A stretch of DNA of 64,000 bases from an uncultured Gemmatimonadaceae bacterium (lineage in GTDB: Bacteria; Gemmatimonadota; Gemmatimonadetes; Gemmatimonadales; Gemmatimonadaceae): contig OY970320.1 of the NCBI GenBank assembly GCA_963716745.1, forward strand, positions 1,920,001 through 1,984,000, written 5' to 3'. The translations under genes were made by a program, and so were the position numbers. Positions 50,511 to 56,218 of this stretch are shown here, piece after piece; the first letter of the stretch is position 1, and each line of letters starts with the position of its first letter. The notes under the pieces are model-generated. The model was not told the DNA's origin, did not search any database, and was given only the letters and a program-made list of their open reading frames with translations.

Positions 50511-52241
50511 TCACGCCGCGGCGGCTTCGACGACCGATGGGTCTGTTCGAGCGAGCACGGCGCCAAGCCACTCGACGATGAACCACAATTCGCCACCGGC
50601 GATCGCCGTGGCGACCAAGGCCGCCGGGATGAACGCCCACGCGCCAGCGACGCCACGGAGCGCGACGGCGATCACCGCCGCACCGACCGCGGGCAGCACG
50701 AGCAGCAGTAGGAACGCCAGCAGCGACCCCAGCATGCTGAGCACATTCTGGCCGAGCGATTCGATGCCGGCCGAACGGCCGGGACCGAGATGCACCCAGC
50801 CGGGCAGGAGCACCGCCCACGCGTTGGCGACGGCCACTCGCAGCGCGGTGAGCGCGGGGAGCATCAGGCCGCTCGCGAGAAGGATGGGGATCGCATTCGC
50901 GACGCGCGCCGCGCTGCCGGCGTGCGCCCACTGGCCGGCCCATGGGATCATCGCGGCAAGTCCGATCGCGAGGCAGATCGCCTGCATGACGCTCAGCAGC
51001 GCGAGGGTGCCAAGGAGCTCCGCGGCGACGATCGTGCGGCCGCTCAGCGGGTACGTGCGCAGCAGGGCGAGCATGAGCATGTCCTGCTGCAGGTCGGTGC
51101 GCACGTAGAGAGGGCCGAAGGTCACGAGCAGGATGGCACCCGAGAGCATGACCGAGCCGACGAGCGTGGAGCCGAATTCGATGCCCGGCATCGACATCAC
51201 AATGCCGCCGATGATCACGAGCGAGAGGATCGCGGTCCTCGTGAGCGGCACGAGTCGCTGGAACGACACCACCACCTTCCACACGAGCGCTACCGCCGGC
51301 CGTCCCGCGGGCGCGAGTGGCGGCCAGATCCGGTTCGCGCGCAACGCCACATCGCCCCGGAGACGGCGTGCCGCGCGCTGCGCAGCGACCCGCTCCGAAC
51401 GCTGCATCGCCGCCTCCTCGAAGGCGACACCGGTGCGGATGACCCACACGTAGGTCGCGACGAGGAGCAGCAACGACCAACCGATCTCGCCAGCCCACTC
51501 GGCTGGCGTGCGCGCGAACACGGGCGCGATGAGCGCGTGGAAGGGCCACAGCACCGTCCGGATCACGGGCGTGTTCCGCAGCGACAGGAGGGTGGTGCCC
51601 ATGGTGCCGGTCACCAGCGCCGAGCTGAGCGATGGCAGCGCTTCGATCACCGCGTAAACGGTCGCGCCGATCGCCGTGGCCGCGATCGTGAGCGGCAGCC
51701 AATTGCGGCGCAGTCCGGTGCGGCCGTGTTGCGCGGCGCTCACGCGCACGAACGAGGCGCCCACGCGATGCAGATAGAGCGTCGTGAAGAGGATCCATAG
51801 TGCGAACGCGTGCCGGACAGGGATGCCGGTCACCTGTCGCGAGAGCAACACCTTCCAGATCAGAACGCTGAGCAGGATCGCGATCTGAGCTTGCGCCAGC
51901 TTGTAGTTGATGAGCGCCTGGCGCGTGACCGGCGCCGGAAAGAGCATCTGCACTTCGGACCGGCTGAAAGTGAGCGCGGGCTCAGGGGCACCGAAGATCC
52001 AGAGCCAGGCTGTGGTGAGCGCGAGCAGCAGTTCGTACACGTTCTCGACGACGTCCCCGAAGCCGGCGGGCACGGCGCCGGTATCGCGCACGCCGTTCCC
52101 GAGGAACGTCCAGAGCCACAGCGCGCCCAGCACGATCGCGATCGCATAGCGCGGCGACCGCGCGCGACGGACCTCCACGCGCACGCGATTCGCGAGCGAG
52201 CGCGTGAGGAGGAACTGCAGCGCGCCGACGGAGCGCTTCAC
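50511..52241 (-). CDS. Putative ABC exporter permease
   Basis: Many TM helices; EVQMLFPAPVTR, DLQQD...LRTYPL; GTGA overlap with the ABC ATPase. Confidence 0.82.
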   Translation of the reverse strand: MKRSVGALQFLLTRSLANRVRVEVRRARSPRYAIAIVLGALWLWTFLGNGVRDTGAVPAGFGDVVENVYELLLALTTAWLWIFGAPEPALTFSRSEVQMLFPAPVTRQALINYKLAQAQIAILLSVLIWKVLLSRQVTGIPVRHAFALWILFTTLYLHRVGASFVRVSAAQHGRTGLRRNWLPLTIAATAIGATVYAVIEALPSLSSALVTGTMGTTLLSLRNTPVIRTVLWPFHALIAPVFARTPAEWAGEIGWSLLLLVATYVWVIRTGVAFEEAAMQRSERVAAQRAARRLRGDVALRANRIWPPLAPAGRPAVALVWKVVVSFQRLVPLTRTAILSLVIIGGIVMSMPGIEFGSTLVGSVMLSGAILLVTFGPLYVRTDLQQDMLMLALLRTYPLSGRTIVAAELLGTLALLSVMQAICLAIGLAAMIPWAGQWAHAGSAARVANAIPILLASGLMLPALTALRVAVANAWAVLLPGWVHLGPGRSAGIESLGQNVLSMLGSLLAFLLLLVLPAVGAAVIAVALRGVAGAWAFIPAALVATAIAGGELWFIVEWLGAVLARTDPSVVEAAAA

Positions 52242-52969
52242 CCGTCGTGCCCGCCGCCGGTGAGCGCGAGGAAGATGTCCTCGAGCCCCTGCCCCGCGAG
52301 TTGCGGCTGGCCCGCAACGATCTCGGCGATCGTGCCGATCGCCACGAGTTCGCCGCGCTGGATCACGAGCAGCCGCGTACAGAGCTCTTCGACGAGATGC
52401 AGCAGGTGCGAGCTGAGTAGCACGGCGGCGCCTTCGCGCGCCCGCGCCGCGATGGTCGTGCGCATGCGGCGGATCCCGCCCGGGTCGAGTCCCGTGAGCG
52501 GCTCGTCGAGGATGAGCGCGGATGGGGAGTGCACGAGCCCGCAGGCGATCGCGAGCTTCTGTTTCATTCCGCGCGAGAGTTCCGCGGGCAACGCCGCGCG
52601 CTTGTCGGAGAGCTCGAGCTCGTTGAGCAGTGCCGGGATCCGATGCGAAGCGTCGGCGACACCGTATAGGCGCGCCGTGAAGACGAGGTGCTCCTCGACC
52701 GTGAGGTACTCGAAGAGCTGCGGTTCGTCGGGGATGAATGCCAACAGCGCTTTCGCCCGCTCCGGCTGCCGCGCGAGGTCGAACGATCCGATCTGGATGC
52801 GCCCGCCCGTGGGATTGATGATCCCGGCGAGGGAGCGGAGCGTGGTGGTCTTCCCGGCGCCGTTCGGACCGACGAGTCCGAGCACTTCGCCCGGCGCGAC
52901 GGTGAACGAAAGATTCTTCACGGCGGTGAACTCGCCGTAGCGTTTCGTGAGCGATGCGACTTCGATCAT
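52238..52969 (-). CDS. ABC transporter ATP-binding protein
   Basis: GPNGAGKTT, LSRGMKQK, ILDEP, SSH. Confidence 0.95.
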   Translation of the reverse strand: MIEVASLTKRYGEFTAVKNLSFTVAPGEVLGLVGPNGAGKTTTLRSLAGIINPTGGRIQIGSFDLARQPERAKALLAFIPDEPQLFEYLTVEEHLVFTARLYGVADASHRIPALLNELELSDKRAALPAELSRGMKQKLAIACGLVHSPSALILDEPLTGLDPGGIRRMRTTIAARAREGAAVLLSSHLLHLVEELCTRLLVIQRGELVAIGTIAEIVAGQPQLAGQGLEDIFLALTGGGHDG

Positions 52970-53031
52970 GCGGGAAGTCTGGAGAGCGTGGTGCGCTGTC
53001 GCAATGCGGGCGGCGTGCTAAATTGTGTGCC

Positions 53032-53397
53032 ATGCGTCGCTCGTGGATGCGCGGTGGCAGCGCCGCGCTCATGGTCCTCTGGATGTCCGCTTCCCTCGCG
53101 GAGCGGGCGGGGCTCGACCATTGCCCGCAACACGATCCGCGCGCCGCGGCCGCGCTGCAGCTGTCGCACCACGAGGGGCATCGTGGCCACGAGCACGGCC
53201 AGCACCAGAAGTGCTGCTGCCTCGAGCAGTGTGCGTGCGCGTCGTTCTTCACGCGGCCGGCCGATCTCGCCGTCGCGCCCGTCGCTCGCATCTCGCATTT
53301 CGACACCCCCTCGCTTCGTACTCGCGAGACCCCGCTGCCGCGCGTCGACACGCGCCTCCCATTCGCCAACGGCCCTCCGCACGCGCTCGCCGCGTAA
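53032..53397 (+). CDS. His/Cys-rich leader protein (DUF2946/CruR-like uORF) ending in PFANGPP
   Basis: N-terminal hydrophobic segment, HCPQH, His-rich tract, CCCLEQCAC, Pro-rich C-terminus; directly upstream of a TonB receptor; extended -10 (TG-C-TAAATT) 7 nt before the ATG. Confidence 0.72.
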   Translation: MRRSWMRGGSAALMVLWMSASLAERAGLDHCPQHDPRAAAALQLSHHEGHRGHEHGQHQKCCCLEQCACASFFTRPADLAVAPVARISHFDTPSLRTRETPLPRVDTRLPFANGPPHALAA

Positions 53398-53466
53398 CGC
53401 CGTTCGCGCTGTCGCAGCACTGATCCTCTCGTAAGTCCACTCATCCCCTGCGGAGGGGGAACATCC

Positions 53467-55524
53467 ATGTATACGGTCCGTTCGAACGCCCGCGCGCTCG
53501 CGCTGGGCGCCTTCTTGATCGGCGCGCCCGCAACCGCCGCGCCCGCTCAGCAGCCTGACACGACGAAGCCGCCGGCCGCGGACAGCACGCGCCGCGCGCC
53601 GGCCGATTCATCGCACCATATGGCATCGATGCCGGTGATCCGCGTGGTCGCCGCGCCCACACAGCGCGCCGACGCCGCGAGCAGCGTGATCATCCTTCCC
53701 AGCGCGATCCGCACGGTGCCCGCTACCGACGCTTGGGACATTGTTCGACAGACGGCCGGCGTCGAGGTCCACTTGCAGGGACAAGGGCCCGGGTTCGCCT
53801 CGGACGCGGCGATCCGCGGATTCACGTCCGACCACTCCACCGATGACGCGGCGTTCATCGACGGCGTGCCGCTGAACGAGACAGTGAGCGGTCACGCCGA
53901 GGGCTACGCCGACTGGAACGCCCTCATCCCCGAAGCGGTGAAAAGCGTCGACGTGACGAAGGGGCCCGCGTCGCCGTGGGCCGGGAATTTCGCGATGGGC
54001 GGCACGATGAACGTGATCACGCTGCCGACGAATCTCGGAACCGAGTGGAGCGCTCGCGTCGGTTCCTGGGGCGACGCACGCGTGCAGCTGCTCACCGGCA
54101 GCGAGGACGCGGACGGGGGCTGGATGTTCGCGGGCGACCTGCAGCGATCGGATGGCTGGCGCGACAACAGCCAGGAGGCGCTGGGCCATGTGATGGTCAC
54201 CAGACAGTGGTTCGTGCCGGGAGCGCAGACGTACACGCTCGCGGTGAGCGGCTACGGCGGCGGCTGGCATTCGCCGGGATACCTCAGCGACTCGCAGTAC
54301 AAAGCAGGCGACCTCACCCCTGCCACGAACACCACCGACGGCGGGAACGAGGGCTTCGGCACGGTGCGCTTCTCGATGGAGCGTCCGGCGTGGGACGGCA
54401 CGCTCACGTCGACGTTGTATGCGCACGGGGGCACGTGGCACATCTTCCTCACGATCCCGCCGGAAGGAGGGATCGGCGAGGGCGTGCAGTCGCAGACCGA
54501 GGAACTCGACCAGCGATTCGGCCTGGGCGGTACCACGCGCTGGGCGAAACAATTCGGCGCCACGCACTTGGAAATCGGACTCGATTACCGCGTGGTGGAG
54601 GCGCAATACCAGCGCTACTACACGACCGACCGCGTGCGTGACTCGATATTCCTGTTCGATGAGACGCCCGCCAACCTGAGCGCGCTGTATGCCGGCATCG
54701 CGCCCATCGTCGAAGCGCACTGGGATGTGACGCGCGACTTGAGTCTCGGACTCGGCGGCCGCCTCGACTGGATCGACTATGGCACCAAACAACGCAGCGG
54801 CGGCCCGACGACCACCGACGGGCAGTGGGTCGGCTCACCGAAGCTCAGCGCGATCTACCGGTTCACCGGCAAGCTCTCCGCGTACGTCTCATTCAACGGC
54901 GGGTATCGGTCGAGCGACGGCGCGATCGTCACGCCGTCGCTGCCGCCAGCGATCGAGCGCGCGAGTGAGCTGGGCGTGCGCTACACCGGCCAGCGACTTG
55001 AAGGATCCGTGGCGCTGTTCCTCATCAACGTGAGCAATCAGCAGACCGTGGACCCGATCACGCTGCAGCCGAGCTCGGGCGGCACGACGCGTCAGCAAGG
55101 CGTGGAGCTCGACGGACGCGTCGGGATCCTGCGTTGGCTCTCGGTGTTCGCGCACGCGACCGTGAACGATGCGCACTACGTGCATCTCGTGACGGAGGAT
55201 GGCACCGATCTCTCCGGATCGCCGGTGTTCCAGGTAGCGAAGTCCACCGTGCAGTTCGGATTGGACCTGCAACACGGTGCATTCGCCGGTTCGATCTGGG
55301 CCGCCTACACCGGGCCCTGGACGCCGGTGAATCAGGTGGGAGTGCTCACGTCGCCGTATACGCTGCTGAACATTCGCGGCGTGTTCCCGGTGGTCGGCGA
55401 TTGGAGCGGCGCGGTGGGCGTTCAGAATATCCTCGACCAGAAGTACGTCGAGACGCAGGCGAGCGGGTTTATCAGCCCGGGCACCCCGCGCCAGCTGCTT
55501 CTGACCATCCGGCACGGGTTCTAA
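53467..55524 (+). CDS. TonB-dependent outer-membrane receptor
   Basis: Signal peptide; plug motifs IRGF, IDGVPLN, V.KGP...G.FA.GG; NILDQKY...PG.PR; C-terminal Phe. Confidence 0.92.
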   Translation: MYTVRSNARALALGAFLIGAPATAAPAQQPDTTKPPAADSTRRAPADSSHHMASMPVIRVVAAPTQRADAASSVIILPSAIRTVPATDAWDIVRQTAGVEVHLQGQGPGFASDAAIRGFTSDHSTDDAAFIDGVPLNETVSGHAEGYADWNALIPEAVKSVDVTKGPASPWAGNFAMGGTMNVITLPTNLGTEWSARVGSWGDARVQLLTGSEDADGGWMFAGDLQRSDGWRDNSQEALGHVMVTRQWFVPGAQTYTLAVSGYGGGWHSPGYLSDSQYKAGDLTPATNTTDGGNEGFGTVRFSMERPAWDGTLTSTLYAHGGTWHIFLTIPPEGGIGEGVQSQTEELDQRFGLGGTTRWAKQFGATHLEIGLDYRVVEAQYQRYYTTDRVRDSIFLFDETPANLSALYAGIAPIVEAHWDVTRDLSLGLGGRLDWIDYGTKQRSGGPTTTDGQWVGSPKLSAIYRFTGKLSAYVSFNGGYRSSDGAIVTPSLPPAIERASELGVRYTGQRLEGSVALFLINVSNQQTVDPITLQPSSGGTTRQQGVELDGRVGILRWLSVFAHATVNDAHYVHLVTEDGTDLSGSPVFQVAKSTVQFGLDLQHGAFAGSIWAAYTGPWTPVNQVGVLTSPYTLLNIRGVFPVVGDWSGAVGVQNILDQKYVETQASGFISPGTPRQLLLTIRHGF

Positions 55525-55530
55525 CCGGTA

Positions 55531-55550
55531 AAGTCACCATGTAGTGACTT
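55531..55550. promoter_or_regulatory. Palindromic operator copy at the 3' end of tetR
   Basis: AAGTCAC-CATGTA-GTGACTT. Confidence 0.65.
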
Positions 55551-56157
55551 ACTGATCGGCAGGGCCGAGTAGCGCGCTCACGATATTCGTGAGCGCGCGC
55601 TCGATCCGGCGCCACTCATCGTCGCGGCGCGGTTCCAGCGCGCCGACCGATGCGCCGGGCGCGGCATGCAATGCGAGATGCGTCATCGCGGCGGCCAACA
55701 GCGCGACGATCGCATCGAGATCGACGAACGCGGGAAGCCGGTGGCGTTCGCGCAGCGCCGCGACGATCGCTCGCGCATGCTCAGCTCGCGCCGCGGTGAT
55801 GTCCCGCGCCAGCTCATCGTTCTCCGCCAAGCTCCACACCACGGCTCGCCTCGCGAGCGGGCTCGCGCGCAATTCGCGCGCCGCATCGAGGAGCATCGCG
55901 GTCAGCTCTCGCGAGAGCGACGCGTCGGTCTCCTCCGTGCTTCGCAGCGCGTCCGAATCCGGCCACAGCCGCCGCTCGCGCGCGAGCGCGCGCATGAGCT
56001 GCGCGCGGCCGCCGAAATATCGATAGATGAGCACCTTATCGACGCCGGCCGCGGCGGCCACGGCGTTGATGCGCACTGCCCCGACACCCTGCCGCGTAAG
56101 CAGCTGCTCCGCCGCCGCCAAGATCCGCGCGCGAGTGGCTTCCCTGTCCCGAGGCAT
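55549..56157 (-). CDS. TetR/AcrR family regulator
   Basis: RDREATRARILAAA...INAVAAAAGVDKVLIYRYFG; ATG 56157 lies 7 nt after TATATT. Confidence 0.9.
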   Translation of the reverse strand: MPRDREATRARILAAAEQLLTRQGVGAVRINAVAAAAGVDKVLIYRYFGGRAQLMRALARERRLWPDSDALRSTEETDASLSRELTAMLLDAARELRASPLARRAVVWSLAENDELARDITAARAEHARAIVAALRERHRLPAFVDLDAIVALLAAAMTHLALHAAPGASVGALEPRRDDEWRRIERALTNIVSALLGPADQ

Positions 56158-56164
56158 GTCGGTC

Positions 56165-56218
56165 AATATAAGTCACTGTTCAGTGACTAATCAATATATT
56201 GTCACCAATAGGTGACTT
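56165..56218. promoter_or_regulatory. tetR promoter with two palindromic operators
   Basis: AGTCAC-TGTTCA-GTGACT (56171-56188) and GTCAC-CAATAG-GTGAC (56201-56216); minus-strand TTGATT-N18-TATATT. Confidence 0.75.

Follow-up and report, generated by a model that had tools for sequence, protein, structure and literature searches.

Control of metal uptake by leader peptides that act as metal sensors before they leave the ribosome was recognized recently, and is known from two studied cases, CruR and CutF, and from surveys keyed on the arrest motifs RAPP and RGPP. CruR (Bp2923; DUF2946, PF11162) is a leader encoded upstream of the TonB-dependent receptor gene bfrG of Bordetella pertussis. Its CXXC and RAPP motifs lie 45 residues apart, a distance that Roy (2022) found to be kept within 1–2 residues in over 2000 DUF2946 proteins; altering this spacing impairs regulation, and the output is Rho-dependent termination, from which the leader shields the transcript (PMC9426467). 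CutF of Rhodobacter capsulatus has a Sec signal, a CxxxC motif, a C-terminal proline motif and a stem-loop that shields a Shine–Dalgarno (SD) sequence; here it is copper that induces the stall, and the regulated target is a multicopper oxidase (PMC9973294; bioRxiv 10.1101/2025.02.05.636593). In the arrest peptides ApcA, ApdA and ApdP, every replacement of the arginine of RAP(P/G) abolished arrest, as had been found earlier for SecM, and R139A abolished arrest of CruR in vitro; furthermore, upstream open reading frames (ORFs) with RAPP or RGPP, on which the survey of Fujiwara (2025) was keyed, are enriched before genes for TonB receptors and copper proteins (PMC12992588). Here, we describe the ORF P0001 (53032–53397, forward strand), which lies in a stretch of 64,000 nucleotides (nt) of DNA from an uncultured soil Gemmatimonadaceae bacterium (the window, whose positions serve as coordinates throughout) and which, judged from its sequence, probably encodes a metal-sensing leader peptide with a regulatory role like that of CruR and CutF.

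By sequence comparison, P0001 belongs to a real, conserved and undescribed branch of this class of metal-sensing leader peptides, in which the arginine of the arrest motif is missing. The ORF runs from an ATG at 53032 to a TAA at 53395–53397 (121 amino acids plus stop) and encodes, as a preliminary description of this DNA had reported, HCPQH, HHEGHRGHEHGQH, CCCLEQCAC and a C-terminal LPFANGPP, followed by HALAA and the stop codon. The presumed regulated gene, which encodes a TonB-dependent receptor of 685 amino acids (53467–55524, forward strand; Plug domain at 7e-16, TonB barrel at 2e-29), starts 69 nt behind the leader stop, and P0001 is the predicted first gene of an operon for a TonB receptor; the lead position in an operon for such a receptor or for a copper-handling protein is one of the features by which DUF2946 leaders are recognized. 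The intervening spacer (53398–53466, forward strand, 69 nt) is rich in C and poor in G, and is a possible Rho loading region.

Conservation was assessed in an alignment of 88 family members, while spacings and endings were counted in 160 short family proteins. Invariant or nearly invariant in the alignment are M1 (95%), W17, C31, H34, H53, C61, C63, C67, P110, P115 and P116. The putative metal sensor (53122–53238, forward strand) consists of C31-P-x-H34 (C31 invariant, P32 in 89%, H34 in 99%), a His-rich loop (H46 in 88%, H53 in 98%, and H59; 17% His in the sensor loop) and C61-x-C63-x3-C67 (C61 and C63 invariant, G65 in 86%, C67 in 99%); in the window protein, the Cys cluster of the sensor (C61–C69) carries C62 and C69 in addition. 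A CXXC motif is absent from the window leader, and the candidate metal motif is instead the CxxxC that is present within the invariant or nearly invariant C61-x-C63-x3-C67. Behind the sensor, residues 68–108 (53233–53355, forward strand) form a linker in which no column reaches 60% identity, although its length is conserved: among the 157 proteins with both motifs, 65 have 45 residues and 51 have 46 between CxCxxxC, counted from its last Cys, and the X of XGPP (45–46 in 116, 44–47 in 143; range 42–50). The window protein has 45, and the distance of about 45 residues between Cys motif and arrest motif that marks the described leaders is therefore present here as well.

The linker leads into LPFANGPP, the putative arrest module (53356–53379, forward strand), of which P110, P115 and P116 are invariant and the L, F, A, N and G of L109-P-F-A-N-G-P-P116 are conserved in 81–88%. 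By analogy with toeprints of RAPP peptides (PMC12992588), Pro115 (CCT, 53374–53376) would be expected in the P-site and Pro116 (CCG) in the A-site. The two prolines lie 1–10 residues before the stop in 159 of the 160 proteins, and NGPP of the window protein is five residues from its end; the RAPP of CruR is about three residues from the end. What this ending does not have is the R-[A/G]-P-P of the described leaders: the position of the arginine is Asn113 in the window and Asn in 81% of the 88 aligned members, with Thr, Ile or others in relatives, and the four-residue motif, counted in 159 proteins, reads NGPP in 112, TAPP in 15, IGPP in seven and RGPP in one. The Arg-less motif put forward in the preliminary description is thus real and conserved. 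NGPP is missing from a set of 1462 crude long ORFs of the proteome (0 observed versus 3.6 expected), a deficit that is meaningless among the 40 motifs tested, and RAPP is not depleted in the same set (16 versus 17.1 expected).

Scans of the window's leader protein against Pfam and NCBIfam gave no family match, and a word-indexed search returned 11 relatives that carry neither names nor Pfam domains. When 1.84 billion cluster representatives were searched with a profile, 2055 matched at E ≤ 0.001 and 810 at E ≤ 1e-10. Homologues of the leader were detected in each of the five other genomes of the genus and, in total, in 17 of 61 related genomes, and a scan of species-representative genomes identified 36 loci, 35 of them titled Gemmatimonadaceae, Gemmatimonadales, Gemmatimonas or Gemmatimonadetes and one titled 'bacterium' only; a metagenome scan added 61 further leader loci. 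In this analysis, the family was found only in Gemmatimonadota, the 36 genome loci being either from this phylum or unclassified. The loci were searched with an alignment of 13 sequences and had to carry the peptide pattern [RVA]LPFANGPP; motif statistics are biased by this selection, codon statistics are not. Across the family, the leader gene sits constantly right upstream of a TonB receptor gene. When 28 downstream ORFs were scanned with Pfam, 24 proved to be TonB receptors and a 25th the N-terminus of a truncated one; the remaining three were a CopC-CopD gene, an unrelated hydroxylase gene 441 nt away and a wrong frame of a receptor gene. A match to PFATGPP on the opposite strand of L006/L026 lies antisense inside the receptor gene and was dropped as chance. 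One related assembly holds extra leader–receptor copies on short contigs (L018; contigs C17 and C11 of G002), which are split over three frames and could be assembly indels or pseudogenes.

Sub-threshold matches to PF11162 were obtained for 45 of the 88 family members (best E 5.5e-4), the locus L012/L062 scoring 20.6 bits, and in the language-model features of a protein atlas, the leader adjoins clusters with DUF2946 (12% of members) and DUF6660. The class Gemmatimonadetes also holds canonical leaders with CxxC and RAPP or RGPP, PF11162 being found in 20 of 301 genomes at E ≤ 0.001 and in eight over the family cut-off. Since these canonical leaders coexist in the class, the PFANGPP family is a separate branch rather than a local form of CruR; its sequences place it next to DUF2946 as a divergent lineage that has no Pfam family of its own and carries Asn in place of the RAPP/RGPP arginine. 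The canonical DUF2946-like leaders are those of L057, L060, L061, L063, L065, L067 and L130–L147, and several of them use the rare GCT-CCT for Ala-Pro. We found no description of an Arg-less NGPP leader family in the portions of the literature covered, 'Gemmatimon' and 'NGPP' being absent from the corresponding portions of the supplements of Roy (2022) and Ozturk (2023) and of the main text of Fujiwara (2025). The proposal of an undescribed family resembling CruR and CutF is supported by the full architecture, the 45–46-residue spacing, the downstream receptor and the lack of a prior description. One premise of that proposal had been mis-stated: it ascribed to CruR a stall that opens an SD-occluding stem, whereas, according to the reports cited above, CruR works via Rho-dependent termination and the SD-shielding stem-loop is that of CutF.

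Selection is also apparent in the choice among synonymous codons. The first Pro of GPP, at the presumed P-site, is encoded by CCT in 29 of 45 genome-derived loci and in 29 of 52 further metagenome loci (58 of 97 combined; loci L001–L128). After clustering of the leaders at 60% identity, CCT accounts for 39.7 of 61 clusters (65%), CCG for 13.5, CCC for 6.0 and CCA for 1.8. By comparison, CCT makes up 2.5% of the Pro codons when 745 long ORFs of this genome are taken together, 7–8% of the Pro codons elsewhere in the leader ORFs, and 2–4% at the Pro of PFA and the second Pro of GPP; in ordinary Gly-Pro-Pro sequences of this genome, the first Pro is CCT in two of 58 cases and the preceding Gly is GGC in nine of 58. 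As the excess is confined to a single Pro codon, selection acts on the nucleotide or the tRNA at exactly that codon. Possible causes are anti-SD pairing, tRNA identity and slow decoding; all three tRNA-Pro genes exist in the genome. CCU-CC is an anti-SD sequence, which would fit a pairing between the Pro-Pro codons and the receptor SD, yet a predicted SD is no commoner in CCT clusters (18 with and 9 without) than in clusters with other codons (10 and 5), an absence of association that is based on crudely predicted receptor starts, of which nine were set by hand in the duplex-energy analysis. An interpretation in terms of CCW codons and tRNA-UGG was discarded, the enrichment of CCA (11 of 52 metagenome loci) collapsing to two lineages after clustering. 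Among the RAPP-type leaders of the class, 19 were kept from 21 candidates, the other two (both CCG) having been dropped as likely spurious frames; in these 19, the corresponding codon is CCT in six and CCA in four, and Ala is encoded by the rare GCT in eight. A Gemmatimonas-type subgroup (L040, L046, L048, L051, L054 and L056) has CCG at the first Pro.

The preliminary description had called the ORF leaderless, and comparison between loci supports this as the probable mode of initiation. An extended −10-like box, TGcTAAATT (53016–53024, forward strand), lies 7 nt before the ATG and implies an mRNA that is leaderless or has a 1-nt leader, and no SD precedes the ATG in the 62-nt gap that separates it from a divergent ABC (ATP-binding cassette) ATPase gene ending at 52969. 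A TANNNT box ending 5–10 nt upstream of the aligned start codon is present in 60 of 79 evaluable loci, compared to 0–2 of 79 at eight shifted control positions, and many of the 19 loci without it have such a box 11–12 nt away. A two-hexamer sigma-70 scan of the window called no promoter, the TGcTAAATT box included, and it is therefore the comparative counts of the −10 box that lead to the leaderless reading. The start codon opens a signal-like N-terminal segment (53032–53106, forward strand) with MRR, basic residues, an uncharged stretch of 15 residues and then Glu24. In 60 of the 88 aligned members this stretch has exactly 15 residues, preceded by 2–4 Lys or Arg, and Glu24-Pro25 are conserved in 80% and 73%. 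An AlphaFold2 model of the leader has a helix at residues 3–28, with a predicted local distance difference test score of about 90.

If stalling, the sensed metal and the output step are taken over from the described leaders by analogy, the locus may work as follows. The leader would be translated from a leaderless mRNA, and its short signal-like N-terminus would take the nascent chain to the membrane. Owing to the fixed distance of 45–46 residues to LPFANGPP, the Cys/His cluster (C31, H34, H46, H53 and C61-x-C63-x3-C67) would be located just outside the ribosome or in the translocon when the Pro codons occupy the P- and A-sites. Metal binding at this cluster might then alter the length of a pause at Gly-Pro-Pro, five codons before the stop, and the pause would set the expression of the receptor 69 nt downstream: in the logic expected of an importer, the receptor would be kept on by the stall under metal scarcity and turned off once metal releases the stall. 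As the output step, the stalled ribosome could hide an anti-SD in the Pro-Pro codons, prevent Rho from acting on the C-rich spacer, or do both. The conserved Asn at the place of the arginine allows three readings of the ending itself, namely arrest through other contacts, for which the conserved L-P-F-A is an obvious possible candidate, a polyproline pause sensitive to elongation factor P (EF-P), the gene for which (efp) is present in the genome, or no stall at all. A bolder version, which we regard as speculative and would not expect to hold in full, is that LPFANGPP is an arginine-independent arrest module dependent on the P-site codon or tRNA and forms, together with the leaderless start, a self-contained translational switch for metal sensing with a wide distribution in Gemmatimonadota.

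The RNA around the end of the leader offers several candidate structures for the output step. The anti-SD-like 9-mer CCCTCCGCA (53373–53381, forward strand), which comprises the third base of Gly114, CCT of Pro115, CCG of Pro116 and the first two bases of His117, is perfectly reverse-complementary to the SD-containing TGCGGAGGG (53449–53457), and the local hairpin TCCCCT-GCGG-AGGGGG (53444–53460, forward strand; −9.9 kcal/mol) is able to cover the receptor SD, GGAGG at 53452–53456; both observations of the preliminary description were confirmed. With this predicted hairpin, the spacer contains a stem-loop of the CutF type that would pair the SD of the regulated gene. In 14 relatives, 90.5% of the cells of the hairpin are paired, including two compensatory pairs that both come from one sequence, a level of compensation reached by 25 of 500 shuffles. 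An imperfect hairpin (53364–53408, forward strand), which is part of the predicted minimum-free-energy structure, pairs the Phe-Ala-Asn-Gly codons (53364–53373) with the post-stop element GCCGTTCGCG (53399–53408) and encloses the segment from GPP to the stop; pair counts in the 14 relatives gave no covariation support for this helix. The post-stop element is nearly invariant among these relatives, and the rest of the spacer is variable. As the region folds with no extra stability over shuffled sequences (z = 0.19), no argument can be based on its stability.

The Gly-Pro-Pro-His codons (53373–53381) might act as an anti-SD, such that a stalled ribosome frees the receptor SD and its departure allows the two to pair again and shuts off translation, a switch that we consider doubtful on balance. 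It would explain why the complement is exact over 9 bp and kept over at least 8 bp in 14 of 14 genus-level relatives, and why GGC and CCT, the codons that form it, are both unusual for Gly-Pro-Pro in this genome. Other lineages have complements of their own between the 3' end of the leader and the SD (CCCTCCGAG/CTCGGAGGG in L091; CCCCCGCC/GGCGGGGG in L080, where the first Pro is CCC and faces GGGGG; GGTCCTC/GAGGACC in L030; CCTCCGA/TCGGAGG in L039; 10 nt in the tail of L029), in 21 of 67 loci, compared to about 10% expected, the Pro-Pro segment is among the seven best of about 66 segments by energy of the duplex with the SD, and a ribosome-sized mask at the Pro-Pro codons raises the predicted accessibility of the SD in L012, L029, L030, L031 and L052. 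However, seven of the nine pairs never vary in the window's clade (14 relatives) and none changes on both sides, so that the covariation of Pro-Pro codons with the SD that the preliminary description had suggested looking for is not found in these close relatives. The helix is not part of the minimum-free-energy structure, which becomes 2.9 kcal/mol worse when it is enforced, and the predicted accessibility of the SD at this locus is 0.44 with and without the mask of a stalled ribosome, since the SD is held by the local hairpin and by further C-rich segments; the response is equally flat in L005 and L006. A complement of at least 9 nt to the SD window arises in 125 of 5000 shuffles (2.5%) of the last 60 nt of the ORF, and Pro-Pro codons (CCNCCN) are anti-SD-like by composition. 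Moreover, CCT is not associated with a predicted SD across clusters, CCA is the codon in 11 of the 13 members of a clade whose SDs are strong (GGAG(G)), the complements of L091 and L029 fall in the tail, outside the arrest codons, and several lineages have long spacers and no SD. Of the claim that the Pro-Pro codons sequester the SD, what stands is a pairing kept in all 14 close relatives; it neither covaries nor belongs to the minimum-free-energy structure, nor does it extend to the whole family. It is plausible that this pairing contributes in this genus, and it is not the family's general rule. Alternatively, and with an equally good fit, an output of the CruR type could operate, in which the stalled lead ribosome would keep Rho off the C-rich spacer and RNA polymerase would read into the receptor gene, while metal would release the stall, the ribosome would terminate at 53395–53397 and Rho would end transcription before the receptor; we hold this as a tentative possibility, short of probable, and it could be combined with the SD structures. 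The mechanism is the one demonstrated, according to PMC9426467, for the only characterized leader before a TonB receptor. The window spacer (53398–53451, its last 15 nt excluded) contains 43% C and 20% G, C exceeds G in 67 of 67 spacers (mean 42% versus 28%; C/G above 1.5 in 29), and rho is present in the genome (643 bits). In the six loci of the Gemmatimonas-type subgroup, furthermore, spacers of 187–341 nt have no recognizable receptor SD, and an SD switch cannot explain those lineages. Conversely, an excess of C over G is not specific to Rho-utilization sites and was counted in the 67 spacers without a control set, the window spacer has only 69 nt compared to 162 bp in B. pertussis, and the conserved SD hairpin and the post-stop element would be superfluous if Rho alone set the output.

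Whether P0001 is a regulator at all has to be weighed against the view, which we judge improbable, that it is a stable small exported or membrane-anchored metal-binding protein serving as a chaperone or accessory of the receptor; PFANGPP would then be needed for processing or for contact with other proteins, and the complementary RNA segments would be by-products of Pro-Pro codons beside an SD. Metal chaperones are often encoded beside transporters, and a protein of this kind would account for the four conserved Cys, the several conserved His and the confidently predicted N-terminal helix, as well as for the missing arginine on which RAPP-type arrest depends. Several findings weigh against our preferred view, that of a regulatory leader. 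As the arginine is essential in the RAPP peptides tested, NGPP should not arrest in the RAPP manner, and stalling in the NGPP family is an extrapolation by analogy. A search with P0001 gave no match to PF11162 at E ≤ 1 (cut-off 23.7 bits), which leaves it outside DUF2946 as formally defined, and in a profile–profile comparison, no more than the N-terminal 29 columns could be aligned to five RAPP-type leaders from Gemmatimonadales (probability 29.5%); being confined to the signal region, this alignment does not establish homology with those leaders. The AlphaFold2 model is weak overall (predicted template modeling score 0.33). The receptor (53467–55524) has generic subfamily matches in domain and family profile scans and no match to a substrate-specific equivalog, and the adjacency of CopC-CopD genes discussed below was seen in only two of the six loci where it could be judged. 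Finally, the sequences were retrieved by a motif-containing profile or peptide pattern, and the presence and conservation of the motifs are thus partly built in; the constancy of an otherwise unconserved linker length is not. It is this linker that a stable metal-binding protein leaves unexplained: a 41-residue segment of fixed length without a conserved residue, with an ending 1–10 residues before the stop, resembles a ruler for the ribosomal tunnel and not a folded domain. Such a protein would equally leave unexplained a synonymous-codon bias on exactly one Pro codon, the constant position immediately upstream of the receptor, and the sub-threshold DUF2946 matches in half of the members. In the case of CutF, the mature protein was reportedly not detected. 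A RiPP precursor and a sorting signal of the PEP-CTERM type were likewise considered for P0001 and rejected, as no modifying enzymes are encoded next to the ORF and the tail behind Pro-Pro has only 1–10 residues.

As to the metal that the putative leader would sense, four Cys and several His do not discriminate between candidates. A gene for a CopC-CopD fusion directly follows the receptor gene in L036 (L151) and follows a remnant of the receptor C-terminus in L047, whereas no CopC was found near the loci L042, L044, L046 and L048; a CopC first placed beside L042 was found to sit on another contig. From the two CopC-CopD loci, copper is our best guess for the likelier metal, and the suggestion of Ni, Co or Zn rather than Cu in the preliminary description received no support. 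The receptor of L036 reads as two overlapping frames (458 and 365 amino acids).

The neighbours of the leader–receptor pair are a divergent ABC transporter (50511–52969, reverse strand), which comprises the ATPase gene (52238–52969) and a long membrane-protein ORF upstream of it, and, on the 3' side of the receptor gene, a convergent TetR-family gene (55549–56166, reverse strand). Elsewhere in the genome, the full-length rho gene is accompanied by a second, shorter Rho-like ORF (G000:C1:2160811-2161842), whose 431 bits fall short of the family cut-off.

If the family stalls ribosomes, the sequence rules for programmed arrest are widened, and switches of this kind have been missed by current Pfam searches and by motif searches keyed on RAPP/RGPP; the RAPP rule would then not be the sole route to robust regulatory stalling at Pro-Pro, and, were the arrest to depend on the P-site codon or tRNA, the choice of CCU in about two-thirds of lineages would point to an undescribed isoacceptor- or mRNA-dependent component of such arrest. 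If it does not stall ribosomes, the conserved ruler and ending need another explanation.

Of the known systems, CruR is the closest in layout. In both cases, a small ORF of the exported type stands directly before a TonB-dependent receptor gene, a Cys motif is followed by 45 non-conserved residues and, close to the stop, by X-[A/G]-P-P, the spacer exceeds the usual length within an operon, and an importer would be expected to be repressed by its own metal. The two differ in that RAPP is replaced by NGPP, without the arginine, and CXXC by CxCxxxC together with C31, H34 and the His loop; in addition, the leader described here has a leaderless-type start, a 69-nt spacer with a conserved SD hairpin and no match to PF11162, and its first Pro uses the rarest Pro codon, whereas the RAPP of CruR is said to use frequent codons. 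With CutF, the leader shares a CxxxC-type motif (C63-x3-C67), a putative Sec-type N-terminus, a C-terminal proline motif that is not a strict RAPP, and a predicted spacer stem-loop shielding the SD of the next gene. In contrast to CutF, whose target is a multicopper oxidase and whose stall is induced by copper, the target here is an importer, and we therefore expect the opposite polarity; moreover, lists of CutF-like leaders were built in Proteobacteria, while the NGPP family was found here only in Gemmatimonadota. ApdA, ApdP, ApcA and SecM resemble the family as small proteins that have a localization signal and, close to the C-terminus, a G-P-P core, but their arginine, reported as irreplaceable, is Asn here, and the upstream L-P-F-A has no counterpart in them. 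Searches keyed on RAPP/RGPP would overlook the family. The Gly-Pro-Pro context also relates the ending to EF-P-dependent pauses at XPP, among which Peil et al. reportedly placed Gly-Pro-Pro, in 2013, with the stronger polyproline pause contexts, and efp is available in this genome; however, ordinary pauses at Pro-Pro are short and rescued by EF-P, and regulation by the NGPP leaders would need a pause that is enhanced by its context or modulated by metal.

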